Assembly (NCBI GenBank): GCA_030248215.1
Contig: JASANG010000440.1
Span: 248,001 to 312,000 of the forward strand
DNA length: 64,000 bases
Direction of reading: 5' to 3'
From: Enoplolaimus lenunculus
Taxonomy: Eukaryota
Part shown: piece by piece, positions 9,729-42,000 of the stretch
Layout of the letters: each line of letters opens with the position of its first letter
Numbering within the stretch: the stretch's first letter is position 1
Translations under genes and position numbers: made by a program
The notes under the pieces: generated by a model
What the model was told of the DNA's origin: nothing
What the model saw: only the letters and a program-made list of their open reading frames with translations
Databases searched by the model: none

Positions 9729-12700
9729 CTATGGTCCATCAACACTATTTTCCGATACTTTATCCTCCAAGCTGCCTAATGAACTAATCAATATTCGCTG
9801 TGCTTTTTCTTTGAAATTCAGCAAAACGCCATGTTTTTCCATCAAATGTATTCTCAGAGCTTGCCTGCCAGTATATGCCTTACAGCACCCAGCCTGATCA
9901 CACTTGAAAGGCCTCAAACCACTATGCATATTGCGATGGCTAGCCAACTTATACTGCTTCGTAAACGTTCTATTACAATCAGGCCAGTTACAAGCATACT
10001 TGCCACCTGAATTGGCACTGGACAAGTTAGGTTTAGACTCCACGCCCTCTTGATTACTATCACCACGAAACGAACCACTAGACGGCTGCCCTGATTTTTG
10101 ATAGTCACTCACGAGCTGCTTGTAGCATCGTCCAGACGTAAGCGCGCATAACGAATCTGGATCGATTTCAAATTCGTCTGGAATATCTTCCGGGTCTCGC
10201 TTGTGTACACAAACTAAATGACGTAGGAGATGAAACATTCTTGAATATGATTTACCGCACACCGAACATTCAAACAACGTGTGCCTTGAATTTGGCGATA
10301 TAGAATTTAGGTCTTGATCGGCACACTCGCTGGATGAATGTTCCTCATATACCCCTGAATTACTATTCCCAGTCGTCATTTCACCGTCCGCACTTTGATT
10401 TTGCATTCCAGAACCTAAAGCCGAATTTCTTTTCTCAACAGGCGAACTGCGACCACTGACACTACTTGTGTTTGAATGAACCGCTGCAATATGAGATCGT
10501 AACTTCCCATGTGTCGCAAAATTTTCGTTACAATCTAGAATTGGGCAAAACAGCCAGTTTTCAGGCACAATAGATCTTCTTGCTGGTTTTTTGGATGCAT
10601 GAATACGGGCCGTGTGTTTCGCAAGTTGATAGTTGTAAACAAATTTGTAGCTGCAATGCTCACATTGTTTTTGACGGCGGTGAACCTGTAGATAACAAAA
10701 CACAAGGATAAGTGTATAAAATTATTTTAGTTTCTTAAGCACGTATCTAACAATGGACATGAACATTGAAATACTAGATACATTATTAGTTTTTGTTTCC
10801 CAGCGTGTGATGCTGATCATGCATCATAAACGAGGGCGCTGCCTTAGTTGAAGGGCTCGATAGCATCGCGTCCGATCGAAACCATTGACTAACACTGGCT
10901 AAAACTTTCGGTTGCATTTTATCAACACAAACTCTCACACTTTTTCGAAATTCAGCTTGATTTGTAAAATCCAAAGCTACAGTAAACGTGATTTTAAGAA
11001 TTGGACTTAAATGATACAGCTTAAACTGACATTTTAAGAGCTGAACAAACCAGCACTAACAAAACTGAACTCGTTTTAATACATTTTTTATCTATTTGAC
11101 TATAATTCTCAAAAACAATACATGTTATACTCCATAATAACATCACCTACAGAACTAGTATGCTTTCGCAAGTCTGACCAACGTGCAAATATTTCTTGGC
11201 AGTCATCAAGGTTACACTTATATCCATCGTGGATTTTCATGTGAGCCTTCAACTTTGACGGTATTACAAATGATTTTTCACAACGATCACATTTGAAGGC
11301 TTTTACACCAGTATGGATGTATTCGTGAACCTGAAACTCAAAAAACAAAATAATAAAACACAAATACATCTTCCAACCACACTATAAAGATCTTTGAGCG
11401 CGTCCTTGACAAACGGATTCGTGACATTGTCAAGATCACCATTACCCAAGTTGAATTCGTCAAAAGATGTGGCACTACCGACGCCATTCATGCCGCCGGA
11501 CTCCTGCTAAAGAGAAGTATATAACGCAAAAAGCACAACCACTTCACGTCGCGCGTTCCTTGACCTAGAGAGGACCTTCGATCGCGTGCCACATGAGCTA
11601 ATTTGGTACACGCTCCGTCAGCACAAAGAGCCTGAGGAGCCAGTCAGATGTGTCCAGCTACTCTATCACGAACCCAGGAGTCGAGTCCAAAGTGCAGCTG
11701 GAACGTCAAAGCCACACAGTGTTTCCGTTGGCCTCAACCAAGGAAACGCTGTTTCACCGCTTCTGTACGTTCTCGTCATAGATACCATCACTCGCAACAT
11801 TCAGCGCCCTACACACTACTCTATGCGGACGACGTCTTCCTGGCCCCCACGAACAAGACCGACCGCGAGCAACTCGTCCAGCTCTAGAATGACCGCGTCG
11901 TGCAACACGGCCTGCGACTAAACCTAAAAAAGATTGAGTACATTACGACGAACCCGAAGGAAAACGGCACGTTCAGCATCGATGGCACCGACTTACCACG
12001 TACCGAAAACTTCAGGGTACTTGGATCAATGCTCTCTGCGGATGACGACCTGCGATAAAAGGTTATTGGGCCAATCAATGCTGCATGGACGAAATGGCGA
12101 TCGACGAGCGGCGTTCTCTGCAGCAGGCAGATGAAGAACCGCCCGACATCGAAGACCTAAACAGTCGTCCTACGGCCCGTGGCCCTATAAGGAGCAGAAT
12201 GCTGGCCGATCACGACTTTGGAACGCCGCCTTGCTTTCATGGACCCGAAAATGCTGCGATGGATCAGCAGAATCACCCACTTCGACCATGTTCGCAACCA
12301 CGACATCCGACGCCGGTGTGGCGTAACACCAATCACAGACAAAACGCAAGAAGCCCGCCATCGGTGCATCGGTGGTACGGCCACGCGCCGCGCGCAAATG
12401 ACGACTCCCTCGCAAAAATCGACCTCAACATTGACACTGACGGAAAGCGTCCAAAAGCCCGACCAAAGCAGCGATGGCTAGACACGCGGCACGCCGATTT
12501 CCATGCCGCACGACTTCACCCTAGAACAGCCGACCCCGCTGCCAAACGGACTAAGGCCAAAGAATAAGAAGAAGAAGAAGAAACAAATACGAGAAACTTA
12601 AGCGTTTTGGTGAAATATATTATATACTTGATTCTGTTCGACTATACGTAAGATTAACATACATAAGCATGCAGCGGCTCAAGTGTGTACGTATATATGC

Positions 12701-13007
12701 CGTTATTTAATATCTGCCTAATATAACCATCCCATTTAAGCGTACTCACCTTAAGCTCACGATTTTTACGGAATGCCTTATCACAATGACCGCACTTATA
12801 AACGTATTTGTCGTGACTTTTAACATGTCTCTTCATATTATCAACGTTTGTAAACACGCTTTTGCAGCCAACAATTGTACATGCAATGGAACCAGTGCCT
12901 TTTCTGACTTTTGTCTTGAAAACCGTGGCCTCAACCTGGCTAAACTCCTGCTCATCCAACGATTCTTGGCTGGTGGTAGATGTATTAATCTTAGCACTAT
13001 TAGGCAT
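9729..13007 (-). CDS. TFIIIA-like protein with nine C2H2 zinc fingers, 464 aa predicted
   Basis: Exons 13007-12750, 11330-11151 and 10685-9729, all phase 0 with GT-AG boundaries. Fingers such as [40 protein letters not shown] and LRSHIAAVH resemble TFIIIA fingers 4-8. Confidence 0.75.
11368..12582 (+). mobile_element. 5'-truncated, decayed RTE-clade non-LTR retrotransposon in intron 1 of the zinc-finger gene
   Basis: Frameshifted RT motifs ([58 protein letters not shown]), a (AAG)n 3' tail, and an 8-bp target-site duplication acaaatac at 11360-11367 and 12583-12590. Confidence 0.9.
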
Positions 13008-13073
13008 TTTGAACTATATACGTTATGTGTAATTTTACATGGTGCGAAATTGCACACTGAAACAAAAATCCCG

Positions 13074-15964: not shown

Positions 15965-16325
15965 TACAGACATAAGCTACACTGAACCTTATGCTTTGGC
16001 TTATAGGTTTAGTCATTGACTCATACACTTTAATCGGCACAACCAAATGATATATATTTTCTGAAACGCCATTTACGGCCTACAATCTGATACTAAATTT
16101 GGACCGTTCGTTTAGGTTTAGGCATAAGATTATGCTAATACTACTCGGTACTGTGCTGTCTGTTTATCTGTTTTACATACGAAAACCGCACACCGGTGCA
16201 TTTAGCTGCAATGATGCTCAAATTACGTATCGTCGGCGTTTCAGTTTCATTTAAATTACAAATATTAATAAAAAGCTTTCTGAGTAATTTTTACTGAAGT
16301 TCGATTTTATTGGCACCATTTTTGT

Positions 16326-19300
16326 TTACACATCCATCCATATTTCATGTCTGTTTTCTGCATTTGCTTGATCAATTTCTTTATTTAAGGCCAATGCTCG
16401 TTGGAAAGCACAATATAAATACAGCGCAGCGTCGTGATTTGCTTCTCGCATTGATCCGGTGGATCCTCGCCAAACGTTCCAAGCAGCTTCGTTCGTCAAG
16501 TGAGGAAACGCGGCAGCTTTGCCTTCGATCATTTCGTTCAAACTCAACTCATTCGGTGCAGCATCGCTGAAATATTTTGAAACATTAACGTTTTTCTTTC
16601 TGGAGTATCTTTGATTGCAGAAAAGTATTTTGAAAGATGCATTTTGATGCGCAAAACGAGCGTTAAAATAGCGTTTTATTTTTGCCACAATTTCCAAACG
16701 ATTTAATCACAATTTTGATTGGTTAATTTTTTCATTTATTTTCAGTTTTGACAAAGTTTGTCGACTTTTGTTTTTTTGTATCTTTCAACTTCGGTTGCAT
16801 CCTGGTTCGCGTAGTATTTGCAATGTTCTAAGTTGATGCTTCACCAAACATATATCATTTTCAAGTGCACAATAATGATATTTCGTAAGTTTTTTGAGAG
16901 ATAAAATACGTACTTTTATGAGACGTTTCAAAATTTAACTTGAGATTTTATACTAAAATTGAAAATTATACAAAAGATCAAAAATATGCTTTATTACTTT
17001 AAAATGGTAAATATTTTAGTGATGTGCGTTATATACTTGTTTTCGTCTGTAGACTTACTGACAGGGTGTAATCGGCTATCCGATACCGTTTCCGTTACTT
17101 TGATTATCTGGTTTACACCGTGGTTACTAAAACTACACTGCAAAAAATGGTTAGTCAAATTGACTCTCTCCGAAATAGGCTTTTTCTGACCACACAAACT
17201 GAGTCAAAATTTGACTCCGGTTGAGTCAAATTCAACTCAGTTTGGCTCTGGCGGAGTCGAATATTGACTCAGTTTGTGTAGTCAGGAAAAGCCTATTTCG
17301 GAGAGAGTCAACTTGACTCACTATTTTTTGCAGTGTACGCGTGGGAAAACTTGCTTGTATTTCAACTTTGTTTTTCGTTGTGTGTTTCTTTCCTGTGGTT
17401 CGTTCTCGAGCTTGTCTTTAAGGTTTCTAAAAACATAAGTCAGAATCATGCAGGGCTACGAAGCATACAACACCAAACATCTTAATGTTATTTATAGCCT
17501 AAGCCTAAGCTTAAGTAGCGTAAGCCTAAGAGAAAGTCTAACCTAACCTAAGCCTAAGCCTAACAGGCGGATCTAAAAATTTCCGACAGGGAGGGCAGGC
17601 TGGCAAATGTTATGAGACGCAAAACTTGTAAGGTAGGGTGAAAAATTGTAAGGAAGGACCTTACCATTTTATCGCACAAAAATTTTGCGGAAAAAATGTT
17701 TAGGCGTCATACACAATTGTATAGAACCATCAACAAAAAATTCAAGTTTAATGATTATTAATCTTTATCTCAGCGATGATCTTTCAACTTTTAAAGTATT
17801 TCAAGGTTTAACCTTTAGTGGTTTAAACTGCTCAAACTATAAACGTATAAGGCTTACTTATAATCAAGGTTAAAGTTGTAACCATTTGTAGGCATTGCAG
17901 CTTCATTTTCTAGCTTGTCCTTCAAGTTTCTAAATCAAGATATTTTGGGTTAGTTTAAAATAGCTGAAATCGTCTAACAAGGTTGCTAATAATTGTTGAA
18001 AAAATGAAAGTTTATTTTACCCTTTAAACAAAACCCAGAGATATAAACTGCCGTTATCCAGAGTTGAACAAACGTTCAGCATGAAATTTAAATTATATGT
18101 GTGACAACCTGTATGTCCGCAATAATCGTCCTACATTAAACCGTGAAAACTTTTATACTGTAGTTGCTCAAGCAGCTCAAACTATAACAAACAATACTTA
18201 CTTATAATCAAGATTAAAATTATAGCCATTTGTGGGGTTTGCGGCTTCCTTTTCCAGCTTGCTCTTCAAGTTTCTAAACTTAGAAAGGTTTGAATTAGCT
18301 CTACATGATTATAATTTTCTAGTCTATATTTCGAATAATTGTTGAAATAAAATGCACTTAATAATATTTTAAACAGAGTCGCACGTGTTCAATAGACTGT
18401 TATTGAAATCTGCAAAGAGCTATGTAATAGAAGTTCAAATTTAATGTGGGATGTGCATGTCCACACTAACCATTCTGCTTTTACAACGTGTGTGCTTTTA
18501 AGTTATAATGATGCATACTGTTCAAACTACAATAAATAACACTAACTTATAGTCAACGTTAAAGTTGTAACCATTTGTAGGCTGTGCAGCTTCATTTTTC
18601 AGTTTATCTTTCAAGTTTCTAAATCAAGATATTTTGAATCAGATGTACACCTGTCTACAATTTTATAACATTGATAACTTTTGCTAAATTGCTAAAGTAT
18701 AATGCAACATCAAAAATTTCACCAGAGATTGCTATAATGGTTGAAATGAAATTCAACTATCATTTATTTTAAACAAAACCCGGATGGACCAATAGGCGTC
18801 ATACAGAATGTACAGAACCATCAACAAAAAATTCAAGTTTAATGATTATAAATCTTTATGTCCGCGATGACCTTTCAACTTTTAAAGTATTTGAAGGTTT
18901 AACCTTTAGTGGTTTAAACTGCACAAACTATAAACCTATAATGCTTACTTATAATCAAGGTTAAAGTTGTAACCATTTGTAGGCATTGCAGCTTCATTTT
19001 CTAGCTTGTCCTTCAAGTTTCTAAATCAAGACAGTTTGGGTTAGTTTAAAATAGCTGAAATTTTCTAACAAGGTTGCTAATAATTGTTGAAAAAATGAGG
19101 GTTTATTTTACCATTTAAACAAGACTCAGAGATATAAACAGCCGTTATCCAGAGTTGAACAAACGTTCAGCAAGAAATTTAAATTTAATGTGTGATAACC
19201 TGTATGTCCGCAATAATCGTCCTACATTAAACCGTGGAAACTTTTATACTGTAGTTGCTCAAACAGCTCAAACTATAACAAACAATACTTACTTATAATC

Positions 19301-22300
19301 AAGATTAAAATTATAGCCATTTGTGGGGTTTGCGGCTTCCTTTTCCAGTTTGCTCTTCAAGTTCCTAAACTAAGAAACTTTGAATTAGCTTTACATGATT
19401 GTAATTTTCTAGTCTATATTTCAAATAATTGTTGAAATATAATGCACTTAATAATATTTTAAACAGAGCCACAAGAGTTCAATAATATTGTTGAAATCTG
19501 CAAAGAGCCATGTAATAGAAGTTCAAATTTAATGTGTAATGTGAATGTCCGCACTAACCATTCTACTTTTACAAGTCTGGGCTTTTAAGTTATAATGATG
19601 CATACTGTTCAAACTACAATAAATAACACTAACTTATAGTCAACGTTAAAGTTGTAACCATTTGTAGGCTTTGCAGCTTCATTTTTCAGTTTGTCTTTCA
19701 AGTTTCTAAACCAAAATATTTTGAATCAGTTTTTACACATGTCTACCATTTTCTAACATTGATAACTTTTGCTACATTGTTAAAGTATAATGCAATATCA
19801 AAAATTTCAACCAGACGTTGCTATAACGGTCGAAATGAAATGCAACTATCATTTATTTTAAACAAAACCTGGAGGGACCAATAGGCGTCATACAGAATTG
19901 CACAGAACTATGAACAAAAAATTCAAGTTTAATGATTATTAACCTCAATGTCCAAGATAATCTTTCAACTTTTAAAGTATTTGAACGTTTAACCTTTAGT
20001 GGTTTAAACTGATCAAACTATAAACCTATAAGGCTTACTTATAATCAAGGTTAAAGTTGTAACCATTTGTAGGCATTGCAGCTTCATTTTCTAGCTTGTC
20101 CTTCAAGTTTCTAAATCAAGACAGTTTGGGTTAGTTTAAAATAGCTGAAATCTTCTGACAAGGTTGCTAACAATTGTTGAAAAAATGAGGGTTTATTTCA
20201 CCCTTTAAACAAGACTCAGAGATATAAACAGCCGTTATCTATAGTTGAACAAACGTTCAGCTTGAAATTTAAATTTAATGTGTGATAACCTGCATGTCCG
20301 CAATGATCAACCTACATTAAACCGCGGAAACTTCTATACTGTAGTTGCTCAAGCAGCTCAAACTATAACCAACAATACTTACTTATAATCAAGATTAAAA
20401 TTATAGCCATTTGTGGGGTTTGCGGCTTCCTTTTCCAGTTTGCTCTTCAAGTTCCTAAACTAAGAAAGTTTGAATTAGCTTTACATGATTGTAATTTTCT
20501 AGTCTATATTTCAAATAATTGTTGAAATATAATGCACTTAATAATATTTTAAACAGAGCCACAAGAGTTCAATAATATTGTTGAAATCTGCAAAGAGCCA
20601 TGTAATAGAAGTTCAAATTTAATGTGTAATGTGAATGTCCGCACTAACCATTCTACTTTTACAAGTCTGGGCTTTTAAGTTATAATGATGCATACTGTTC
20701 AAACTACAATAAATAACACTAACTTATAGTCAACGTTAAAGTTGTAACCATTTGTAGGCTGTGCAGCTTCATTTTTCAGTTTATCTTTCAAGTTTCTAAA
20801 TCAAGATATTTTGAATCAGATGTACACATGTCTACAATTTTATAACATTGATAACTTTTGCTAAATTGCTAAAGTATAATGCAACATCAAAAATTTTACC
20901 AGAGATTGCTATAATGGTTGATATGAAATTCAACTATCATTTATTTTAAACAAAACCCGGATGGACCAATAGGCGTCATACAGAATGTACAGAACCATCA
21001 ACAAAAAATTCAAGTTTAATGATTATAAATCTTTATGTCCACGATGACCTTTCAACTTTTAAAGTATTTGAAGGTTTAACCTTTAGTGGTTTAAACTGCT
21101 CAAACTATAAACCAATAATGCTTACTTATAATCAAGGTTAAAGTTGTAACCATTTGTAGGCATTGCAGCTTCATTTTTCAGTTTGTCTTTCAAGTTTCTA
21201 AACCAGATATTATGAATCAGTTTTTACACATGTCTACAATTTTCTAACATTGATAACCTTTGCTTAATTGTTAAAGTATAATGCAACATCAAAAATTTCA
21301 ACCAGACGTTGCTATAACGGTTGAAATGAAATGCAACTATCATTTATTTTAAACAAAACCTGGAGTGACCAATAGGCGTCGTACAGAATTGTACAAAACC
21401 ATCAACAAAAATTCAAGTTTAATGATTATTAATCTTTATGTCCGCGATGATCTTTCAACTTTTAAAGTATTTGAAGGTTTAACCTTTAGTGGTTTAAACT
21501 GCTCAAACTATAAACCTCTAAGGCTTGCTTATAATCAAGGTTAAAGTTGTAACCATTTGTAGGCATTGCAGCTTCATTTTCTAGCTTGTCCTTCAAGCTT
21601 CTAAATCAAGACATTTGGGTTAGTTTAAAATAGCTGAAATTTTCTAACAAGGTTGCTAATAATTGTTGAAAAAATGCAAGTTTATTTTATCCTTTAAACA
21701 AAACCCAGAGATATAAACAGCTGTTATCCAGAGTTGAACAAACGTTCAACATGAAATTTAAATTTAATGTGTGGTAACCTGTATGTCCGCAATAATCGTC
21801 CTACATTAAACCGTGGAAACTTTTATACTGTAGTTGCTCAAGCAGCTCAAACTATAACAAACAATACTTACTTATAATCTAGATTAAAATTATAGCCATT
21901 TGTGGGGTTTGCGGCTTCCTTTTCCAGTTTGCTCTTCAAGTTTCTAAACTAAGAAAGTTTGAATTAGCTTTACATGATTGTAATTTTCTAGTGTATATTT
22001 AAAATAATTGTTGAAATAAAATGCACTTAATAATATTTTAAACACAGCCACATGAGTTCAATAGAGTGTTATGGAAATCTGCAAAGAGCCATGTAATAAA
22101 AGTTCAAATTTAATGTGGAATGTGAATGTCCGCACTAACCATTCTACTTTTACAACGTCTGTGCTTTTAAGTTATAATGAAGCATACTGTTCAAACTACA
22201 ATAAATAACACTAACTTATAGTCAACGTTAAAGTTGTAACCATTTGTAGGCTGTGCAGCTTCATTTTTCAGTTTATCTTTCAAGTTTCTAAATCAACATA

Positions 22301-25300
22301 TTTTGAATCAGATGTACACATGTCTACAATTTTATAACATTGATAACTTTTGCTAAATTGCTAAAGTATAATGCAACATCAAAAATTTCACGAGAGATTG
22401 CTATAATGGTTGAAATGAAATTCAACTATCATTTATTTTAAACAAAACCCGGATGGACCAATAGGCGTCATACAGAATGTACAGAACCATCAACAAAAAA
22501 TTCAAGTTTAATGATTATAAATCTTTATGTCCGCGATGACCTTTCAACTTTTAAAGTATTTGAAGGTTTAACCTTTAGTGGTTTAAACTGCTCAAACTAT
22601 AAACCTATAATGCTTACTTATAATCAAGGTTAAAGTTGTAACCATTTGTAGGCATTGCAGCTTCATTTTTCAGTTTGTCTTTCAAGTTTCTAAACCAAGA
22701 TATTATGAATCAGTTTTTACACATGTCTACAATTTTCTAACATTGATAACTTTTGCTTAATTGTTAAAGTATAATGCAACATCAAAAATTTCAACCAGAC
22801 GTTGCTATAACGGTTGAAATGAAATGCAACTATCATTTATTTTAAACAAAACCTGGAGTGACCAATAGGCGTCGTACAGAATTGTACAAAACCATCAACA
22901 AAAATTCAAGTTTAATGATTATTAATCTTTATATCCGCGATGATCTTTCAACTTTTAAAGGATTTGAAGGTTTAACCTTTAGTGGTTTAAACTGCTCAAA
23001 CTATAAACCTCTAAGGCTTGCTTATAATCAAGGTTAAAGTTGTAACCATTTGTAGGCATTGCAGCTTCATTTTCTAGCTTGTCCTTCAAGTTTCTAAATC
23101 AAGACATTTGGGTTAGTTTAAAATAGCTGAAATTTTCTAACAAGGTTGCTAATAATTGTTGAAAAAATGCAAGTTTATTTTATCCTTTAAACAAAACCCA
23201 GAGATATAAACAGCTGTTATCCAGAGTTGAACAAACGTTCAACATGAAATTTAAATTTAATGTGTGATAACCTGTATGTCCGCAATAATCGTCCTACATT
23301 AAACCGTGGAAACTTTTATACTGTAGTTGCTCAAGCAGCTCAAACTATAACAAACAATACTTACTTATAATCAAGATTAAAATTATAGCCATTTGTGGGG
23401 TTTGCGGCTTCCTTTTCCAGTTTGCTCTTCAAGTTTCTAAACTAAGAAAGTTTGAATTAGCTTTACATGATTGTAATTTTCTAGTCTATATTTCAAATAA
23501 TTGTTGAAATATAATGCACTTAAAAATATTTTAAACAGAGCCACAAGAGTTCAATAGTATTGTTGAAATCTGCAAAGAGCCATGTAATAGAAGTTCAAAT
23601 TTAATGTGTAATGTGAATGTCCGCACTAACCATTCTACTTTTACAACGTCTGTGCTTCTAAGTTATAATGAAGCATACTGTTCAAACTACAATAAATAAC
23701 ACTAACTTATAGTCAACGTTAAAGTTGTAACCATTTGTAGGCTTTGCAGCTTCATTTTTCAGTTTGTCTTTCAAGTTTCTAAACCAAAATATTTTGAATC
23801 AGTTTTTACACATGTCTACAATTTTCTAACATTGATAACTTTTGCTACATTGTTAAAGTATAATGCAATATCAAAAATTTCAACCAGACGTTGCTATAAC
23901 GGTCGAAATGAAATGCAACTATCATTTATTTTAAACAAAACCTGGAGGGACCAATAGGCGTCATACAGAATTGCACAGAACTATCAACAAAAAATTCAAG
24001 TTTAATGATTATTAACCTCAATGTCCAAGATAATCTTTCAACTTTTAAAGTGTTTGAAGGTTTAACCTTTAGTGGTTTAAACTGCTCAAACTATAAACGT
24101 ATAAGGCTTACTTATAATCAAGGTTAAAGTTGTACCCATTTGTAGGCATTGCAGCTTCATTTTCTAGCTTGTCCTTCAAGTTTCTAAATCAAGACAGTTT
24201 GGGTTAGTTTAAAATAGCTGAAATCTTCTAACAAGGTTGCTAACAATTGTTGAAAAAATGAGGGTTTATTTTACCCTTTAAACAAGACTCAGAGATATAA
24301 ACAGCCGTTATCTATAGTTGAACAAACGTTCAGCTTGAAATTTAAATTTAATGTGTGATAACCTGCATGTCCGCAATGATCGTCCTACATTAAACCGCGG
24401 AAACTTCTATACTGTAGTTGCTCAAGCAGCTCAAACTATAACCAACAATACTTACTTATAATCAAGATTAAAATTATAGCCATTTGTGGGGTTTGCGGCT
24501 TCCTTTTCCAGTTTGCTCTTCAAGTTTCTAAACTAAGAAAGTTTGAATTAGCTTTACATGATTGTAATTTTCTAGTCTATATTTCAAATAATTGTTGAAA
24601 TATAATGCACTTAAAAATATTTTAAACAGAGCCACAAGAGTTCAATAGTATTGTTGAAATCTGCAAAGAGCCATGTAATAGAAGTTCAAATTTAATGTGT
24701 AATGTGAATGTCCTCACTAACCATTCTACTTTTACAACGTCTGGGCTTTTAAGTTATAATGATGCATACTGTTCAAAAGACAATAAATAACACTAACTTA
24801 TAGTCAACGTTAAAGTTGTAACCATTTGTAGGCTTTGCAGCTTCATTTTTCAGTTTGTCTTTCAAGTTTCTAAACCAAAATATTATGAATCAGTTTTTAC
24901 ACATGTCTACAATTTTCTAACATTGATAACTTTTGCTTAATTGTTAAAGTATAATGCAACATCAAAAATTTCAACCAGACGTTGCTATAACGGTTGAAAT
25001 GAAATGCAACTATCATTTATTTTAAACAAAACCTGGAGTGACCAATAGGCGTCGTACAGAATTGTACAAAACCATCAACAAAAATTCAAGTTTAATGATT
25101 ATTAATCTTTATCTCCGCGATGATCTTTCAACTTTTAAAGTATTTGAAGGTTTAACCTTTAGTGGTTTAAACTGCTCAAACTATAAACCTCTAAGGCTTA
25201 CTTATAATCAAGGTTAAAGTTGTAACCATTTGTAGGCATTGCAGCTTCATTTTCTAGCTTGTCCTTCAAGTTTCTAAATCAAGACAGTTTGGGTTAGTTT

Positions 25301-26520
25301 AAAATATCTGAAATTTTCTAACAAGGTTGCTAATAATTGTTGAAATAGTGCAAGTTTGTTTTACACTTTAAACAAGTCCCAGAGATATAAACAGCCGTTA
25401 TCCAGAGTTGAACAAACGTTCAGCTTGAAATTTAGATTTAATATGTGATAACCTGTATGTCGGTGGTGGTCGTAGTACATTAAACCGTGAAAACTACTAT
25501 AGTGTAGTTGCTCAAGCTGACAAACTATAACAAACAATACTTACTTATAATCAAGATTAAAATTATAGCCGTTTGTGGGGTTTGCAGCTTCCTTTTCCAG
25601 CTCGTCTTTCAAGTTTCTGAAATAAGACAGATTATATGCCTGTAATTTTGTAGCATAGGTTTTAATACATGTTGAAAAAGAATGCAAGTTATAATGAATT
25701 TTAATGATCCAGAGGAGACCAATGGGCGCTATACATAGTTGTACAAAACCATTCGAAATTGAAGCAAGATGAATTAAGACTTCAAGTTTAACGCTTAAAA
25801 GTTTAGATTTAAAGTATTTTATGAATCAATTACACCTACTTTATATCCGGGTTAATGCTCAGTTGAAAAACTGGCATCTAAAACGAAAATTGGCAAAATT
25901 CAAACTAACTCAGTTTCAACTGATCCATAAACCAACGCCGGTTCTCGTATCGCCAGCGCTAAATATCGCAACATTTGCATCAAACCGTTTTGTTCTTCAT
26001 CCAACGCGCATGCGCAAACGTCAGGCGACGGTGGGTTCAGCTTAATTTGTTCGTTGTACAATTTTAGCGTTTGAGACCACATTTCACGCATATGCAAGCT
26101 GTGAACGAGGCGTTCAAGTGGCGAATAATTTTTCGCATCGTACATTCGATTATCCATATGGCTCAAGACCCAGTCGACGGCGTTCATCGCATCAGTTTTA
26201 AACGCTGGATTGGGATTGCCGAAAGGTGCATGCCGTAAAATAGGTGAGTTTGAAGTTAAATCAAAATCAATGGTAGGAATGTAGTTTTTGGGTCCGATCG
26301 CCGGTTCAAATCGACGCAAATCTTGAACTGTCATTGAATGAATGCAATGGCCAACGTTGGCAGAAAAGAAAAATGACGCATTTGCGGATTGCAACAAATT
26401 CTTGCATCGTTGTGTCTCTAAGCGAGATACTGCAGTCGGGTTGCAATATGCGAAATACAATACAACAAGCAATAATGTCTGCATGAACAGCGACGAAGTA
26501 ACAAAGTTGTAACGCATCAT
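16326..26520 (-). CDS. Secreted uncharacterised Cys/His-containing protein with a tandem array of 23 symmetric 72-nt exons; 835 aa if all are included
   Basis: Exon 1 is 26520-25910 (ATG, signal peptide, donor GA|GTTAGT, phase 2). The 72-nt phase-2 exons have + strand starts at 25545, 25202, 24798, 24456, 24112, 23707, 23365, 23022, 22618, 22216, 21872, 21529, 21126, 20724, 20383, 20039, 19634, 19293, 18949, 18547, 18202, 17858 and 17355. The last exon is 16566-16326 (TTTCAG acceptor, phase 2). Total 2508 nt with no internal stop. Confidence 0.85.
17136..17335. mobile_element. Palindromic MITE with CACTG ends (CMC/EnSpm-like), TA-flanked, in the last intron
   Basis: TIRs cactgcaaaaaat... and ...attttttgcagtg extend over about 80 bp; a partial copy lies at about 31586-31685. 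Confidence 0.75.
17690..25760. repeat. Higher-order tandem repeat: about 1.09-kb trimers of 340-405 bp monomers, each monomer being one exon plus one intron
   Basis: Exon spacings cycle through about 343/404/342 bp; a 1492-1493 bp tetramer is duplicated at about 20.7-23.4 kb. Confidence 0.95.
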
Positions 26521-29904: not shown

Positions 29905-31782
29905 AGATAAAGTATTAGAAAAATTTCTCACAAACTATGCACTGAGCACTGTTTACCGCACCTACAAAATGTATAGGCAATGTTATACTTTGCGGAGTCG
30001 GAAAAGCAGCATAAGCATATTCCTAAGTCTAAGCCTATTAAAATCCTAATAAGTGGTAACATGTCGTCCAACTTTGTGCAATGCACAAAAGTGTTAGCAA
30101 ATGCATTTTTAAAATCTGCATGCAAATTTTCTAATTGAACAATCCCAACCATGTGCTATGAAACTACTGTAAACAAAGTACGCTGGGAACTGGTCCAAAA
30201 CACGTATGTGTGGTATTCCAGCTGTAATTATATAGATTTTAAAACCGCAAAAGGGTTGCAGAATAGTGACGTTGACGTTACACATTCTACATCGAACTTC
30301 TCATAGCTTGTTCACACAAATTGTAGGCATTTCTATGCTAAATGGAATCAAATCTTCGTAATTAGACTGTGCACACAAAATAAATTGTTTTTATTCAAGA
30401 AATATTGTCTGAAATTAAAGACAATTACGTATTGATACAGACTCCAGACATATATATGTCTTGAATTCAAAACTTTTATTTCTTAACTTTTAACTTTTTC
30501 AGAAATAATGGTCTAAAAGTTTTCACGCTTAAACGTCTTAAATTTAATACTTTGTTTTATGAACAATTAAGAAGAAATTTTCTGAAATATAAGACAATTA
30601 TTTTTGAAATATAAGACAAACATGTCTTAAAACACAGAGATTTGCCATGGAAACCGACTCTAAAATGGGGGCTAATGTTCAACCCAATACTCTAATTTTA
30701 CACACCAGTTGCGGCGAGCCTGTGCTCATCCCGTATTATGTGTTAACCATTTTAAAGACGAATTTCTTTCGTTGCTTAAGGTTATTAATCTCTGAAATAC
30801 AAGACATTTATGTTTTGAAAATTTAAAGAAAGTAGGAGTCTTGAAATTTAGAGACAATTTATTTTGTGTGTCTCCGTAAAAAACAAGTTCCCCAACGACA
30901 AAATCGAAGCAACGAAACTAACAGTAGAATAATTTTGCTTGAAATAAAAACATTTTCGTTGCTTTCAAACGATTTTCGAACACAAAAACCTTCATCGATT
31001 TTGTTCAGGTCTTTTCCGTTAATTTGTTCTCACAATTGGTATTTTGTTCCACAAAAGGCCGGATTTCGAAATTTTGTTGTTGCTTACTCGCTTGCCGTCA
31101 TCATTCGACGCACAAATTTGAATTTTTGAAATATTCGATTTTTACGGTCTTCGCTTCGTTTTTGGCACCGAAATATTTTATTGACAAAAAGTCAAACAAT
31201 TTCTGTTTATTGTTCGTTGACACTGCTTGCGAAGCTGAGTTGAATGGTGTTAAATTTTACACAATTAACCCAACGATTACGCGTTTGCTTGGTATGATTT
31301 GAGCAAAATTGGGATCCATAAAAATGACAACGCTCATTGCGTCCTGGTAATGAAATCATCTGTTTTTATTTATCAAAACAACAAATGCGAGAAACTTTAC
31401 TTTTATTTTTTTGTTCTTTAAATGTTTTTATTCAATTGCTGGCTTTTTAATTTCAGTATAAATAAATTACATAACTGTTTATGTCAGCACAGGTACACTT
31501 GAGACAGATTTTGACAATTTTTGCATGCGGGGTTTGTGTTTCGAATGACGTAAACGGAAAACCATATGTATATATTCCATCGTGAATCGAATTTAACTCC
31601 GGCTGAGTCAAATTTGACTCAGTTTGTGTAGTCAGGAAAAGCCTATTTCGGAGATAGTCAATTTGATTCACCGTTTTTTGCAGTGTAGTAAAGGAATCGA
31701 GTAGAAAATTAAAACACAATTTTAAACATTTTTTGCTCTTCAGACAATTTAATATACATAAGGTTTCTGTAAATCATACGTT

Positions 31783-32878: not shown

Positions 32879-33190
32879 TTAATGTTCAACTATTCGTATT
32901 CGATTTGTTCCCTGATAATTTTCAATTTCATTGGCCAAATCCGAATTCAAATACAATTCCACTAAACCGTCGTTGAATTTCCGCCGAATGAATTTACCAA
33001 TGTGTGCTGTAGGAGCGCTTTGATGCCAATTTTTGCTAATTCGTTTTGATTCGTGCGATCTTAAGCCGTTTCTAGGACGAGATGCTAATCGCGGTCCGTC
33101 ATTGGTTGAAACGATTGCAAATGCGATTGTTGGCGTCCAAATAGCGTAGCTCAAAAGCAGACTCACTATCAGCGTTTGATACCATTGCAT
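32879..33190 (-). CDS. Possible small secreted protein, or the first exon of one
   Basis: ATG followed by a clear signal-peptide-like segment (MQWYQTLIVSLLLSYAIWTPTIAFA); possible donor G|GTAAAT at about 32997; no downstream exon established. Confidence 0.4.
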   Translation of the reverse strand: MQWYQTLIVSLLLSYAIWTPTIAFAIVSTNDGPRLASRPRNGLRSHESKRISKNWHQSAPTAHIGKFIRRKFNDGLVELYLNSDLANEIENYQGTNRIRIVEH

Positions 33191-36032
33191 TATTTTAGTA
33201 TATCCTATTTACGATATATTTCCTAATATTACAGTATTAGCAAGAGTGGATGATTACAAGAGTGTGCAACTTGACATGGTTGCGTCTGGTCGAAAAATTC
33301 GGTGCGTTTTGAAATACTCGTCTAATTTAGGGGGTCGTTTTTACAGTTACACGTTGAAGTTTACTAAAAATATGAGCAGACCACTTTCCAGCGAATACAA
33401 CACCATATGAATTTCAATCTCGAGAAATTTGCCAACCCCCATTCTTAAATAAAGATGGGTATTAAAGCTAAAAATGTTACGCGCGCTGGGTACATACATT
33501 TCTACACATAATGTGCTTAGTTGCACTACCTTGTCATATCGTAAACACCCACTCTTGATATTAATAGTTTTACGTGCCGTTTAGTGTTAACAGTAATTAT
33601 TGTTTATATTGTCGACTTTAAACCTGGGGAATCAATTGTAATAGACGTATCCGGGTGATTTCAGAGCCAGACCCTCGTATTGTATTCGAAGTGCAGACCT
33701 CGAGACAAGTTCAACAACAGCATTAGCAGCAGTCGTCCGTTATGAATATTTTTTGTTTTGTCCGACACCTGTTTTCGAAGTTATACGAAAACGGGTTTCA
33801 CGAGTGAGCATCGGCGTCAATCTATTTCAAAAGTAAGGGTTGTATTCTGTAAAATTTAGACATGATTACACTTTCAACGACAAGTCTGTCGCCACTCTTA
33901 TCGTTTACCAAAATTTTTTCTATCGCTTACAAAATTTATATACGTATGTGCTAACTGTTGATATGTATATGTTAGCATGTAGCGTTCCGTTTTCACAATA
34001 AACAGCTTCAATTAGTTACTAGAAAACAGCTTTAATGGTCTTGATTTTCATTTTTAATAAAAAAATTAACACTAAATTAGCTGCGCTAAATTAGCCATGT
34101 AACGCAAAAAATGACACATTTTAAATCAGTGCAAAACATATTCCTCAGTTTAAGCCTCCTCAGCGTAACCAACACGAGTCTAAAACAAAGCTTAAGCCTT
34201 AGCCCAAACAAAAATAGTCTAAAATTTAAGCCTACTCTATTGCGGTATAGTGTCGAGAAAGCAGGGTTCCACTAAAAATATCATGGTTTTGGTGTTTCTA
34301 CAATTAACCGTACTATATCTCAATGTGGTTTTTCCTTTTTCGAACGTAAAATGACTCATGTATACACAGTTTGAGGAAAGGGCTACATTCGATAGAATTT
34401 CAGCTGCAATCAGTCAAACCTGATCAAAGTAAACCAAATCAACTCAATTTCAGGTGACCAAGGCATTACAGCCAAAAATATGCACCAATTGCATTTTCAA
34501 GCTGTAATTTAATCGCAGAGAACGCGTAATTGCGAAGCAAAAATAATTTCTGTTTTACGTGTTTAAAAGTTACAAAATAACATTACAGATAGGAATTAAG
34601 TTCGTACAATGATGATTGTAACGAAAATTGAAATATTGCGTCGCTTTTCAGAATTTAATAATTTTGAGCAAAAATTTAATGTCTTAAATAATTGAATATT
34701 TGAATATTTTATAACAATTACGATGAGATATCAATTGCGAGGCAAAAACTTATCTTTTCATCTGTCAACTGCAAGCTGGAATTACTTTTCGCTTAATAAA
34801 CTCATATTCGTTGTTGCTGTTTTTGACAGTTTTATCTGTATATTTTTTGTTCAATAGTTTCTATTACCCTCCAGATGGGCAACGAATCAATTCGTACAAT
34901 TGTGGGTTCATTTCAAACGAACATTGTTCGATATGCAACGGAAGTTTTCAGCCAGAAGTAGCGCCTATATTCTCAAATGTGTATAGCACGTATCATCTGT
35001 TACTAATAGGTTTTCAAACAAATGAACTGCCACTAGAAGTCAAACTCGGCTCACTGGTAGCATCAATCAAAGCCAACATATTTGCCAAATTTGAAATCAT
35101 GGATTGGTTGAATCGAAATTAACACCCACCAACTTGTTTGTAGTAAAATCTATCAGAACCGGATCAAATGGTAACGCTAATGCTCAGGGGTAAAGTTGAA
35201 TTTTTGAAATGATTAATTTTCACTGCCATCTTGGAAATTGTCTTCTTTTTAGGTGCTGTTCAGACAAATTTTAGGAACTTAAATTTTTGTTTCAAAATTA
35301 CAAATTAAATATTTCAACATGAGAACATTTAGAAAATTACACATTTGTCTAAACACAATTACAGAGTTTAACTCAGGACCGTAAAACGGAAGTGTAAGCG
35401 TATTCCTAAGCTAATAAAGCTAAGATTATGCCTGGGCATAAGTAGAACATAGTCTAAAGCCTAAGCTTAATGCTCAATATCCGGGTCAAAAATGGTATTG
35501 AAAATTTGGGGCCATGGCACAAGTAACTAGGAACATTTAGCAAAAACGGTTCTTGCATATACAATTCAACCACAGGCTCTGACTCTGGCTTAGTAAAAAA
35601 ATGTATCTAAGCCTAAGCCCAAATATTTCCCTAAGACTGAATTTAAGCCTAACATAAAAATGTGGAAAAAATTGTACGAAAGCCCAAAAAATATCGAGTC
35701 AAGGTTTAGGCGTAGGCTGTCGCAGACACTTATCATATGAACACGATAGTGTTCATATATATGATTCGCGCTTCTCAAGCGCGTATTTTCAGTTTAGTTC
35801 GCATGTTGGTGCTCAAGTAATATCAGACCTGTATCGTTTAAATTTTGTACACTGGTATCCTGGTAAGTAGGGAATATTTGTGCCAAAGGATTTTGCAAAC
35901 CAGTGTGGTCTTCAATAGTTACGGTCAAAAACTCCTTACAGAAAGTGCACGAAATTTTTCATTTTGGTTCAACACTTTTTACACGTTAGCTATGTAATTT
36001 TACGATTATAACTTTCACCACTTTATAGAGCT

Positions 36033-39000
36033 TACGGTTGGTTTCACCCAAACGTTTGGTTTCACCCCAACAGTTGGTTTCACCCCAACGGTTGGTTTAA
36101 CCCCAACGGTTGGTTTCACCCCAACGGTTGGTTTTACCCCAACGGTTGGTTTCACCCCAACGGTTGGTTTTGCCCCAAAGGTTGGTTTTGCCCCAATGGT
36201 TGGTTTTGCCCCAACGGTTGGTTTTGCCCCAACGGTTGGTTTCACCCCAACGGTTGGTTTCACCCCAACAGTCGGTTTCACCCCAACGGTTGGTTTTGCC
36301 CCAACGGTTGGTTTTGCCCCAACGGTTGGTTTCACCCCAACGGTTGGTTTCACCCCAACAGTCGGTTTCTCCACAACGGCTGGTTTCACCCCAACGGTTG
36401 GTTTCACCCCAACGGTTGGTTTCACCCCAACGGTTGGTTTTGCCCGAACGGTTGGTTTTGCCCCAACGGTTGGTTTCACCCCAACGGTTGGTTTCACCCC
36501 AACGGTTGGTTTTGCCTCAACGGTTGGTTTTGCCCCAACGGTTGGTTTTGCCCCAACGGTTGGTTTCACCCCAACGGTTGGTTTCACCCCAACAGTCGGT
36601 TTCACCCCAACGGTTGGTTTTGCCCCAACGGTTGGTTTTGCCCCAACGGTTGGTTTCACCCCAACGGTTGGTTTCACCCCAACAGTCGGTTTCTCCACAA
36701 CGGCTGGTTTCACCCCAACGGTTGGTTTCACCCCAACGGTTGGTTTTGCCTGAACGGTTGGTTTTGCCCCAACGGTTGGTTTCACCCCAACGGTTGGTTT
36801 CACCCCAACGGTTGGTTTTGCCTCAACGGTTGGTTTTGCCCCAACGGTTGGTTTTGCCCCAACGGTTGGTTTTGCCCCAACGTTTGGTTTCATCCCAACA
36901 GTCGGTTTCACCCCAACGGTTGGTTTTACCCCAACGGTTGGTTTCAGCTCAACGGTTGGTTTCACCCCAACGGTTAGCTTCACCCCAACGGATGGTTTCA
37001 CCCCAACGGATGGTTTCACCCCAACAGTCGGTTCCACCCCAACGGTTGGTTTTACCCCAACGGTTGGTTTCACCCCAACGGTTGGTTTCACCCCAACGGT
37101 TGGTTTTGCCCCAAAGGTTGGTTTTGCCCCAATGGTTGGTTTTGCCCCAACGGTTGGTTTTGCCCCAACGGTTGGTTTCACCCCAACGGTTGGTTTCACC
37201 CCAACAGTCGGTTTCACCCCAACGGTTGGTTTTGCCCCAACGGTTGGTTTTGCCCCAACGGTTGGTTTCACCCCAACGGTTGGTTTCACCCCAACAGTCG
37301 GTTTCTCCACAACGGCTGGTTTCACCCCAACGGTTGGTTTCACCCCAACGGTTGGTTTCACCCCAACGGTTGGTTTTGCCTGAACGGTTGGTTTTGCCCC
37401 AACGGTTGGTTTCACCCCAACGGTTGGTTTCACCCCAACGGTTGGTTTTGCCTCAACGGTTGGTTTTGCCCCAACGGTTGGTTTTGCCCCAACGGTTGGT
37501 TTCACCCCAACGGTTGGTTTCACCCCAACAGTCGGTTTCACCCCAACGGTTGGTTTTGCCCCAACGGTTGGTTTTGCCCCAACGGTTGGTTTCACCCCAA
37601 CGGTTGGTTTCACCCCAACAGTCGGTTTCTCCACAACGGCTGGTTTCACCCCAACGGTTGGTTTCACCCCAACGGTTGGTTTTGCCTGAACGGTTGGTTT
37701 TGCCCCAACGGTTGGTTTCACCCCAACGGTTGGTTTTGCCTCAACGGTTGGTTTTGCCCCAACGGTTGGTTTTGCCCCAACGGTTGGTTTTGCCCCAACG
37801 TTTGGTTTCATCCCAACAGTCGGTTTCACCCCAACGGTTGGTTTTACCCCAGCCTCAACGGTTGGTTTCCCCCCACCGGTTTGCTTCACCCCAACGGTTG
37901 GTTTCAGCTCAACGGATGGTTTCACCCCAACAGTCGGTTCCACCCCAACGGTTGGTTTTACCCCAACGGTTGGTTTCACCCCAACGGTTGGTTTCACCCC
38001 AACGGTTGGTTTTGCCTGAACGGTTGGTTTTGCCCCAACGGTTGGTTTCGCCCCAACGGTTGGTTTCACCCCAACGGTTGGTTTTGCCTCAACGGTTGGT
38101 TTTGCCCCAACGGTTGGTTTTGCCCCAACGGTTGGTTTTGCCCCAACGGTTGGTTTTGCCCCAACGTTTGGTTTCACCCCAACAGTCGGTTTCACCCCAA
38201 CGGTTGGTTTTACCCCAACGGTTGGTTTCACCCCAACGGTCGGTTTTGCCCCAACGGTTGGTTTTGCCCCAACGGTTGGTTTTGCCCCAACGGTTGGTTT
38301 TGCCCCAACGGTTGGTTTCACCCCAACGGTTGGTTTCACCCCAACGGTTGGTTTTGCCTCAACGGCTGGTTTTGCCCCAACGGTTGGTTTTGCCCCAACG
38401 GTTGGTTTTGCCCCAACGGTTGGTTTCACCCCAACGGTTGGTTTTGCCCCAACGGTTGGTTTCAGCTCAACGGTTGGTTTCACCCCAACGGTTGGCTTCA
38501 CCCCAACGGATGGTTTCACCCCAACGGATGGTTTCACCCCAACAGTCGGTTCCACCCCAACGGTTGGTTTTACCCCAACGGTTGGATTCACCCCAACGGT
38601 TGGTTTCACCCCAACGGTTGGTCTCACCCCAACAGTCGGTTTCACCCCAACGGTTGGTTTCACCCCAACGGTTGGTTTTGCCCCAACGGTTGGTTTTACC
38701 CCAACGGTTGGTTTCACCTCAACGGTTGGCTTCACCCCAACGGTTGGTTTCACCCCAACGGTTGGTTTTACCCCAACGGTTGGTTTCACCCCAATGATCG
38801 GTTTTACCACAACGGTTTGTTTCACCTCAACAGTTGGTTTCACCTCAGCGGTTGGCTTTACCCCAACGGTTGGATTCACCTCAACGATTGGTTTCACGCC
38901 AACGGTTGGTTTTACCCTAACGTTTGGTTTCACCCCAACAGTCGGTTTCACCCCAACGGTTGGTTTTACCCCAACGGTTGGTTTCACCCCAACGGTCGGT

Positions 39001-42000
39001 TTTGCCCCAACGGTTGGTTTTGCCCCAACGATTGGTTTTGCTTCAACGGTTGGTTTTGCCCCAACGGTTGGTTTCACCCCAACGGTTGGTTTCACCCCAA
39101 CGGTTGGTTTTGCCTCAACGGCTGGTTTTGCCCCAACGGTTGGTTTTGCCCCAACGGTTGGTTTTGCCCCAACGGTTGGTTTCACCCCAACGGTTGGTTT
39201 TGCCCCAACGGTTGGTTTCAGCTCAACGGTTGGTTTCACCCCAACGGTTGGCTTCACCCCAACGGATGGTTTCACCCCAACGGATGGTTTCACCCCAACA
39301 GTCGGTTCCACCCCAACGGTTGGTTTTACCCCAACGGTTGGTTTCACCCCAACGGTTGGTTTTGCCTGAACGGTTGGTTTCACCCCAACGGTTGGTTTCA
39401 CCCCAACGGTTGGTTTTGCCTGAACGGTTGGTTTTGCCCCAACGGTTGGTTTTGCCCCAACGGTTGGTTTCACCCCAACGGTTGGTTTCACCCCAACGGT
39501 TGGTTTTGCCTGAACGGTTGGTTTTGCCCCAACGGTTAGATTTACCCCAACGGTTGGTTTCACCCCAACAATCGGTTTTGCCCCAACGGTTGGTTTTGCC
39601 CCAACGGTTGGTTTTGCCCCAACGGTTGGTTTTGCCCCAACGGTTGGTTTCACCCCAACGGTTGGTTTCACCCAACGGTTGGTTTTGCCTCAACGGCTGG
39701 TTTTGCCCCAACGGTTGGTTTTGCCCCAACGGTTGGTTTTGCCCCAACGGTTGGTTTTGCCCCAACGGTTGGTTTCAGCTCAACGGTTGGTTTCACCCCA
39801 ACGGTTGGCTTCACCCCAACGGATGGTTTCACCCCAACGGATGGTTTCACCCCAACAGTCGGTTCCACCCCAACGGTTGGTTTTACCCCAACGGTTGGTT
39901 TCACCCCAACGGTTGGTTTCACCCCAACGGTTGGTTTAACCCCAACGGTTGGTTTTGCCCCAACGGGTGGTTTTACCCCACGGTTGGCTTCACCCCAACG
40001 GTTGGTTTTACTCCAACGGTTGGTTTCACCCCAATGATCGGTTTTACCACAACGGTTGGTTTCACCTCAACAGTTAGCTTCACCCCAACGGTTGGATTCA
40101 CCTCAACGATTGGTTTCACACCAACGGTTGGTTTTACCCCAACGGTCGGTTTCACCCCAACGGTTCGTTTTACCCCAACAGTCGGTTTCACCCCAACGGT
40201 TGGTTTCACCCCAACGGTTGGTTTTGCCTCAACGGTTGGTTTCACCCCAACGGTTGGTTTTGCCCCAACGGTTGGCTTCACCCCAACGGATGGTTTCACC
40301 CCAACAGTCGGTTCCACCCCAACGGTTGGTTTTACCCCAACGGTTGGTTTCACCCCAACGGTTGGTTTCACCCCAACGGTTGGTCTCACCCCAACAGTCG
40401 GTTTCACCCCAACGGTTGGTTTCACCCCAACGGTTGGTTTTGCCCCAACGGTTGGTTTTACCCCAACGGTTGGTTTCACCTCAACAGTTGGTTTCACCTC
40501 AGCGGTTGGTTTCACCTCAACGGTTGGCTTCACCCCAACGGTTGGTTTCACCCCAACGGTTGGTTTTACCCCAACGGTTGGTTTCACCCCAATGATCGGT
40601 TTTACCACAACGGTTTGTTTCACCTCAACAGTTGGTTTCACCTCAGCGGTTGGTTTCACCTCAACGGTTGGCTTCACCCCAACGGTTGGTTTCACCCCAA
40701 CGGTTGGTTTTACCCCAACGGTTGGTTTCACCCCAATGATCGGTTTTACCACAACGGTTTGTTTCACCTCAACAGTTGGTTTCACCTCAGCGGTTGGCTT
40801 TACCCCAACGGTTAGCTTCACCCCAACGGATGGTTTCACCACAACGGTTGGTTTCACCCCAATGGTTGGTTTCACCTTAACAGTCGGTTTCACCCCAACG
40901 TTTGGTTTCACCCCAACGGTTCGTTTTACCCCAACGGTTGGTTTCACCCCAATGGTTGGTTTCACCCAAACGGTTGGTTTCACCCCAATGGTTGGTTTCA
41001 CCTTAACAGTCGGTTTCACCCCAACGTTTGGTTTCACCCCAACGGTTCGTTTTACCCCAACGGTTGGTTTCACCCCAGCGATCGGTTTAGCCCCAACGGT
41101 TGGTTTCACCCCAACGGTTGGTTTCACCCCAACGGTTGGTTTCACCCTAACAGTCGGTTTCACCCCAACGGTTGGCTTCACCGAACTGTTGGTTTTACCC
41201 CGATGGTTGGTTTCACCCCAATGGTTGGTTTCACCTTAACAGTCGGTTTCACCCCAACGTTTGGTTTCACCCCAACGGTTCGTTTTACCCCAACGGTTGG
41301 TTTCACCCCAATGGTTGGTTTCACCCAAACGGTTGGTTTCACCCCAATGGTTGGTTTCACCTTAACAGTCGGTTTCACCCCAACGTTTGGTTTCACCCCA
41401 ACGGTTCGTTTTACCCCAACGGTTGGTTTCACCCCAGCGATCGGTTTTACCCCAACGGTTGGTTTCACCCCAACGGTTGGTTTCACCCCAACGGCTGGTT
41501 TCACCCTAACAGTCGGTTTCACCCCAACGGTTGGCTTCACCGAACTGTTGGTTTTACCCCGATGGTTGGTTTCACCCCAATGGTTGGTTTCACCTTAACA
41601 GTCGGTTTCACCCCAACGTTTGGTTTCACCCCAACGGTTCGTTTTACCCCAACGGTTGGTTTCACCCCAAGGGTTGGCTTCACCCAACTGTTGGTTTCAC
41701 CCCAACGGTTGATTTCACCCCAACGATTGGTTTCACCCCAACGGTTGGTTTTACCTCAACGGTTGGTTTCACCCCAACTGTCGGTTTCACCCCAACGGTT
41801 GGTTTCACCCAAAGATCGGTTTTACCACAACGGTTGGTTTCACCTCAACAGTTGGTTTCACCTCAGCGGTTGGCTTTACCCCAATGTTTGGTTTCACCCT
41901 AATGGTTGGTTTCACCCAAACGGTTGGTTTCACCCCAACGGTTGGATTCACCTCAACGGTTGGTTTCACCTCAACGGTTGGTTTCACCCCAATGTTTGGT

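Follow-up and report, generated by a model that had tools for sequence, protein, structure and literature searches.

Introduction

Genes to which each tandem genomic repeat contributes one small exon are already known. In Schistosoma mansoni, the secreted SmPoMuc mucins hold one 27-bp exon per ~1-kb genomic repeat, with up to ~20 repeats that undergo concerted evolution while their exons are under purifying selection (PMC2576457), and brown-algal ROCO genes contain tandem 72-bp phase-2 LRR exons, each of them encoding one repeat (PMC11378527). The present analysis concerns the window, i.e. a stretch of 64,000 nucleotides of Enoplolaimus lenunculus DNA (contig JASANG010000440.1, positions 248,001 to 312,000), in which a satellite-like stretch of ~10 kb is strongly supported, by features of its sequence, as a row of 23 small in-frame coding cassettes within one gene.

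The window protein resembles SmPoMuc in being likely secreted, in having one small exon per genomic repeat and in the purifying selection detected on it. This likeness is one of architecture, no relation in sequence being expected. The SmPoMuc repeats form a glycosylated N-terminal variable number tandem repeat (VNTR) in a multigene family, while those of the window are 24-residue units with a three-unit higher-order period, placed in the loop of a folded His-containing domain. With the ROCO genes the array shares the tandem 72-bp phase-2 exons, one per repeat; but in ROCO genes the exons form a folded LRR arc, become diversified and undergo alternative splicing, whereas the window cassettes are near-identical, under purifying selection and not LRR. 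No LxxLxL pattern was seen in the window gene, and the two exons flanking the array gave no Pfam match.

Two other systems bear on the domain hosting the array. The plant fused burpitide precursors LbaLycA, AhyBURP and SkrBURP are secretory proteins with four conserved His and repeated or internal Tyr/Trp core peptides, and stand-alone, loopless forms of burpitide cyclases also exist (PMC11253845). The window protein is likewise probably secretory, with four conserved His and Tyr repeats within the domain's own chain, and its family also includes loopless forms; unlike BURP proteins, this family lacks Cys-His pairs (no Cys precedes an invariant His), gives no BURP Pfam match and is predicted to adopt a mainly helical fold instead of a beta-barrel or sheet. 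In fungal DUF3328/UstYa copper enzymes, paired HxxH motifs borne on helices bind copper (PMC12435403). Two helix-borne HxxH motifs and disulfide-forming Cys are common to both families; nevertheless, the window family carries HxxHS and HxxHM motifs ~80 residues apart, shows HxxHC in 0/150 relatives and no Pfam match among 95 members, and the window protein has no membrane anchor beyond a signal-like stretch. Judged by these sequence features, the family is a member of neither BURP nor DUF3328/UstYa. What is new is, therefore, not the one-exon-per-repeat architecture but an unstudied family that combines a metal-type site with a multiplied Tyr motif.

Organization of the cassette array

The 23 cassettes run along the minus strand from 25616-25545 down to 17426-17355, each presenting the arrangement AG|72 nt|G[TC] and none containing a stop or an indel (0/23). 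All are phase 2/2, opening with the last base of a codon and closing with two bases, a phase shared by the donor that follows 25910 and the acceptor that precedes 16566. The former closes exon 1 (25910..26520, minus strand), with an ATG, a signal-peptide-like stretch, the N-terminal part of a domain and a phase 2 end; the latter opens the last exon (16326..16566, minus strand), which encodes the C-terminal remainder of that domain (W..W, ALYLYC) and ends in the stop. When exon 1, the 23 cassettes and the last exon are joined by coordinates, a single open frame of 835 residues with one terminal stop is obtained, while joining exon 1 directly to the last exon leaves an open frame of 283 residues. 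Number, length, strand, phase and integrity of the cassettes, as well as the range of 283-835 residues for the product, agree with a previous sequence-only reading of this DNA; its 219 and 123 residues for the flanking open reading frames (ORFs) had to be replaced by stop-to-stop frames of 220 and 126, the first one giving 206 from its ATG. Tandem genomic units with one symmetric spliceable exon each were thus found, as in other exon-per-repeat arrays. Intron 0 (25617..25909) is a GT-AG intron of 293 nucleotides homologous to the repeated ones, array introns measure 269-333 nucleotides, and those at the 3' end of the array reach 431 and 788. A minus-strand AATAAA (16306..16311) lies 15 nucleotides past the stop, a weak signal as the hexamer also occurs 17 times in introns.

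Cassettes were sorted into types A, B and C, in the order A' B C A B C A B h C A B h C A B C A B C A B T (h, hybrid; T, divergent last one), all on the minus strand. Type A comprises the variant cassette 1 (25545..25616) and cassettes 4 (24456..24527), 7 (23365..23436), 11 (21872..21943), 15 (20383..20454), 18 (19293..19364) and 21 (18202..18273). Cassettes 2 (25202..25273), 5 (24112..24183), 8 (23022..23093), 12 (21529..21600), 16 (20039..20110), 19 (18949..19020) and 22 (17858..17929) belong to type B, and type C includes cassettes 3 (24798..24869), 6 (23707..23778) and 17 (19634..19705), together with the Gln variants 10 (22216..22287), 14 (20724..20795) and 20 (18547..18618). Hybrids 9 (22618..22689) and 13 (21126..21197) are identical in sequence, with a type C 5' half and a type B 3' half, and cassette 23 (17355..17426) is divergent. 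The 22 similar cassettes amount to 11 DNA sequences and 7 peptides; the peptide consensus formerly proposed describes most of them, except that cassette 1 has D-E and cassette 12 begins with Ser instead of Asn.

Donors are GT in 20/23 cassettes, as formerly described, but GC (GCAAG) in the other three (8, 12 and 23), a feature that had been overlooked. The length of exactly 72 nucleotides ascribed to cassette 23 holds only with its GC donor, its in-frame GT donors giving 60 or 105. The 105-nucleotide alternative is provided by a 200-bp inverted-repeat element with a TA duplication in the last intron (17136..17335), similar to a miniature inverted-repeat transposable element, a second copy of which lies at 31583-31689. 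As regards acceptors, an A-to-G change in cassette 12 (21598-21600) creates a tandem AG three bases into the exon, and hence an in-frame alternative, and type A acceptors have a further AG five bases upstream, whose use would shift the frame.

Selection on the coding sequence

Differences between types were evaluated in the proposed frame. The proportions of synonymous (pS) and non-synonymous (pN) differences are 0.31-0.62 and 0.05-0.11, respectively, the ratio of non-synonymous to synonymous divergence (dN/dS) is 0.07-0.14, and 16 of the 24 variable sites are third positions, in agreement with the earlier impression that types differ largely by synonymous changes. The two other frames of the same strand contain stops and show pN/pS of 0.96 and 2.14, while one antisense frame mirrors the codon skew, as a shadow frame would. 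Across types, DNA identity is 76-90% for exons and ~60-73% for introns (57-59% for shuffled introns), so that introns are more diverged than exons as had been claimed, although synonymous sites are about as diverged as introns.

Variation within types was assessed on 19 of the 22 exons (without 1, 9 and 13) and 20 of the 24 introns (without 0, 1, 22 and 23). Introns segregate at 117/868 columns and show 9 indels, exons at 7/216 columns with none. The exon changes comprise five synonymous ones (~41 sites, an intron-like rate) and two non-synonymous ones (~168 sites), the contrast between non-synonymous and intron variation giving a Fisher p of 1e-7, an approximate value since sites are not fully independent. 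Non-synonymous sites are therefore depleted ~tenfold among recent copies and synonymous sites are not. Gene conversion would have depressed both classes equally, so the pattern reflects selection on the protein acting after amplification of the triplet. The cassettes are under purifying selection on the protein, the recent copies included.

Turnover of the repeated unit

Homology to the repeated introns extends to intron 0 (E 3e-9 to intron 2) but not to the last intron, indicating that the duplicated unit consists of an intron plus an exon. This unit would have been triplicated long ago, allowing types A, B and C to diverge until their introns were 63-68% identical, against 57-59% for shuffled ones, and the A-B-C triplet would have been amplified afterwards. 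Units 7-10 differ from units 11-14 by 2, 2, 6 and 16 positions and are a recent four-unit block duplication. In addition, cassettes 9 and 13 agree with type C at four sites of their 5' part and with type B at three sites of their 3' part, recording a crossover within the exon that kept the frame, and thus turnover at the DNA level; unequal crossover may still be altering copy number with the frame left intact. Adjacent units differ at 2-36 positions, from which it follows that the assembly resolved the copies individually. Cassette 23 keeps the repeat peptide along its first 9 codons (five synonymous and one non-synonymous base differences relative to type B), and its remainder has no aromatic motif. 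An origin of the repeat from exon 1 or the last exon was discarded, similarity to them being non-significant (p 0.93 and 0.44, respectively).

The host gene and its family

At E<=0.001, a full HMMER scan with exon 1 found 384 relatives, and the two comparisons that follow cover the 150 listed among them; word-index searches with exon 1 among 84 and 378 candidates had yielded no relative. By BLASTP among them, exon 1 is matched by 150/150 and the last exon by 57/150, and a profile search located both domain parts in 104/150. The last exon matches the profile of the C-terminal part with E 6e-14, a value that is not independent because the profile may contain the window's own last exon. Sequence comparison with relatives thus shows that a single domain is divided between the two flanking exons and that the array sits in its variable loop. 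Together with the selection on the cassettes, this strongly supports the former claim of one gene with coding cassettes.

In an alignment of 95 rows, the four His are invariant (window numbering: H58 and H61, 87/87 each; H140 and H143, 94/94 each), and M144 (93/94), C39 (78/79), C169 and C171 (94/94) and the last-exon Cys (83/86) are nearly or fully conserved, with a loop Tyr in 67/75. The numbered His, Met and Cys residues are all encoded by exon 1. The family signature, which the window protein displays, comprises HxxHS, HxxHM (~80 residues from the former), C...CxC...C and WxxW, interrupted by the variable loop. A hydrophobic, signal-peptide-like stretch at about residues 10-27 of exon 1 makes secretion of the protein likely.

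No meaningful Pfam match was found for the 95 members, nor an NCBIfam match for the 10 members searched, nor a match for the domain in a PDB sequence search. The AlphaFold2 model of relative P0008 is mainly helical (predicted local distance difference test, pLDDT, of 84; predicted template modelling score of 0.82), its loop having pLDDT values of 50-63. Foldseek searches of PDB and viral libraries with this model gave no match at E<=0.001, and against 48,161 chains its best Z was only 2.5, which does not by itself prove a new fold; the BURP fold was not among the fold matches listed for it. Single-sequence fold prediction of exon 1 was uninformative (pLDDT 39). Matches in the ESM Atlas were all below 0.9, with an unnamed 840-residue cluster at 0.83-0.86 as a lead only, and the ankyrin matches among them were rejected.

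Upon looking up 30 clusters, the named ones were found to be uncharacterised proteins of Acrobeloides nanus, Mesorhabditis belari and Plectus sambesii, plus the model Tk12489, whose label Tk we take to denote a copepod. UniRef entries A0A914D3F1, A0A914E9Y0 and A0A914CLG9 (Acrobeloides nanus), A0AAF3F465 (Mesorhabditis belari) and A0A914WJG2 (Plectus sambesii) share 40-50% identity over exon 1, and in a 39-row tree the five named nematode rows fall within one clade, immediately outside which the window protein branches off. Several of these nematode and other eukaryotic relatives carry repeats in the same loop, their longest loop being 287-318 residues in comparison with ~570 in the window protein. 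No prokaryotic relative was found in plasmids or in GTDB genomes (18 pattern matches, 0 confirmed). Metagenome scans returned relatives in 0/58 cases at first and 18/61 in a second round, and no cassette array was seen at those loci, four of which were inspected in translation. The literature search found no paper on the family or on a fused system in animals, although a word search cannot reach an unnamed family.

Some relatives also inform on intron positions. The distant relatives L016, L017 and L018 have introns within the N-terminal part, unlike the intronless exon 1 of the window, and L003 is intronless throughout. P0021, P0003 and P0005 turn to unrelated sequence right at the loop start, as the first ORF of the window does, which suggests that an intron may occur at this point in other family members too.

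The loop and its aromatic motif

The family loop has a median length of 42 residues (range 1-287) and is rich in Tyr (6.3% vs 2.7% in the core). The aromatic triad [YFW]x[YF]x[YFW] occurs in 29/104 loops against 6.1 in shuffled ones and furin-type RxK/RR sites in 13/104 against 3.7, while plain KR/RR is not enriched (36/104 vs 33). Exact repeats occupy the loop in 13/142 representatives, their units of 12-41 residues being unrelated in sequence; P0208 of Acrobeloides nanus bears, in the same loop, ~22 copies of a 12-residue Tyr unit, 19 of them exact. On a quick tree of 130/153 rows, the 16 repeat-bearing rows require 15 changes, at least nine of which are forced by well-supported branches. 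As far as these sequences tell, loop repeats arose or changed repeatedly across the family.

A profile of the loop Tyr, derived from 75 rows, selects GYNF in types A, B and C of the cassettes (p 0.016-0.049). When applied to 13 relatives with repeats that were not part of its training set, it matched six well (P0007, P0011, P0022, P0024, P0040 and P0053), six weakly and one not at all, in a comparison made without a null. The array therefore likely multiplies a motif resembling that of the family loop, in ~22 copies of GYNFN[L/V]DY. Two observations weigh against this assignment, namely that (i) the cassette scores, at 5.5-6.5, are modest and lie near the lower quartile of those obtained by the training rows, and (ii) the repeat of P0074 is not matched by the profile. 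An allatostatin-like reading of YNFNL was dropped, no Gly-Lys-Arg being present.

Predicted inclusion of the cassettes in the transcript

Considering that (i) redundant copies are all under selection, (ii) they show little diversity, (iii) relatives carry their repeats in one chain, and (iv) crossover in the DNA accounts for length change, joint inclusion of the cassettes is favoured. The most likely interpretation of the sequence is a coding VNTR in which every repeat is an exon of its own, with unequal crossover changing its length and the exons mostly co-included. Cassettes would be spliced in mostly as a whole, placing ~22 copies of the motif in the loop, and weak GC-donor copies may be skipped with no harm to the frame. 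We regard as probable a gene model in which the predicted cassette exons are mostly included together in a protein of up to 835 residues. Of the repeat rod or linker initially envisaged, the jointly included repeat is retained, but the array is an insertion in the loop of a single domain and does not link two domains. Some points weaken the case for joint inclusion: both splicing and inclusion are inferred from sequence, selection on every copy could also act if inclusion were frequent yet incomplete, and the three GC donors, two of them in weak context, possibly hint at skipping.

A rival reading is a system of variable length, in which frequent skipping would generate a ladder of isoforms in 24-residue steps and thereby adjust how many motifs the protein carries. 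Each cassette is symmetric and its skipping would preserve the frame, yet any one-phase unit duplicated in tandem would necessarily show this symmetry. GC donors, reported as enriched in alternatively spliced genes, nematodes included (PMC2490688), are tolerated in cassettes 8 and 12, where no usable in-frame GT is nearby, and cassette 12 also bears one of the only two within-type amino acid changes. Moreover, close relatives differ by one repeat (P0201 vs P0202, P0141 vs P0193), which may represent isoforms or alleles. Against this, selection on each copy is strong, and the crossover products explain length change in the DNA, making such a ladder a less likely option.

A mutually exclusive, Dscam-like choice of one cassette would produce a family-typical loop of ~50 residues, close to the median of 42, but is improbable: the 22 copies (76-100% DNA identity) encode only 7 peptides and so are not diverged alternative exons, redundant copies would be expected to decay and do not, introns of 269-431 nucleotides impose no steric limit, no docking-site pattern from intron 0 appears among the 25 longest of 335 inverted pairs, and relatives carry their repeats jointly. 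Finally, that the array is a non-coding satellite born from an exon and spliced out whole, or an assembly artefact, is very improbable, given the ~tenfold depletion of non-synonymous but not synonymous changes in recent copies, the 9 indels in introns against 0 in exons and the individually resolved neighbours (2-36 differences), even though the 283-residue product of skipping has the full length of a family member and the coding status of the array is read from sequence.

Possible function of the domain and its repeats

A pair of HxxH motifs with a Met beside it is a layout typical of metal sites, and the HxxH/HxxHM site of the family likely binds metal. Regarding the repeats, the explanation to which we give close to an even chance is that they form a multivalent segment rich in Tyr, Lys and Asn, with a structural or adhesive role in matrix, cuticle or glue, or a released pro-peptide, the His site being unrelated to them and serving, for instance, metal storage or another substrate. 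The existence of loopless members, the free variation of the loop in length and sequence, and the enrichment of furin-type RxK/RR sites, which flank each repeat in P0040, P0124, P0166 and P0141, are consistent with such roles. On the contrary, what is usually kept and multiplied is the aromatic motif and not a generic spacer, and the repeats of the window gene have no dibasic sites save in cassette 23, where the single RK of the 552-residue repeat region lies, so they are not each flanked as in neuropeptide precursors. This scarcity of dibasic sites fits a cross-linked polymer better than released peptides.

Alternatively, the domain would oxidise or cross-link the Tyr motifs of its own loop, the repeats then multiplying its substrate. 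Such self-modification, suggested by analogy, is the least certain part of the reading favoured here, and we give it clearly less than an even chance. Several facts speak against it: 11/104 loops are of 11 residues or fewer, so that the domain does not need the motif; KR/RR processing sites are absent from the cassettes; HxxHC is found in none of the 150 relatives; and metal binding and activity are predictions from the sequence.

Other features of the window

An 18-bp minisatellite of ~349 copies extends over 36034-42315. Its minus frame KPTVG[V/A] is open for 1224 codons (36018-39689), with seven single-base losses shifting the frame further up; because of these shifts and of most third positions being invariant, coding is doubtful. 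A multi-C2H2 zinc-finger gene occupies 9732-13013 on the minus strand, its best solved-structure matches being TFIIIA-like, and a plus-strand reverse-transcriptase fragment (11511-11918, Pfam RVT_1) is probably in one of its introns. Short runs of TTAGGC, the nematode telomere motif, are found at 17496-17563, 43661-43735, 46664-46721 and 47361-47568, some of them in a dispersed repeat also present upstream of the cassette gene, and the motif is enriched in the window (65 vs 24 in shuffled sequence). On the minus strand, Gly/Arg/Ser-rich exons at 57295-57759 and 62045-62434 resemble an RNA-binding protein gene, with no convincing single-exon Pfam match, and a 103-residue ORF at 32879-33190 has a signal-peptide-like start and no Pfam match.

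Conclusions

The architecture here presented is a clean, well-resolved case that annotation would mask as satellite, and the array marks the region that has been multiplied again and again in the evolution of an unstudied family. Hundreds of eukaryotic proteins belong to this family, which is covered by neither a Pfam nor an NCBIfam model, had no structural neighbour in the searches made here and carries an invariant site of metal type. In its widest and most speculative form, which we advance with considerable reserve, the analogy would make it an animal counterpart of the plant fused peptide cyclases, one whose fold would be new and whose four-His/Met metal site would oxidise Tyr motifs of its own loop, present in nematodes, crustaceans and other eukaryotes, and with substrate copies repeatedly raised by tandem duplication, here as one exon per core peptide. 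If self-modification were true, animals would possess a self-sufficient way of making cross-linked peptides like those known from plants.

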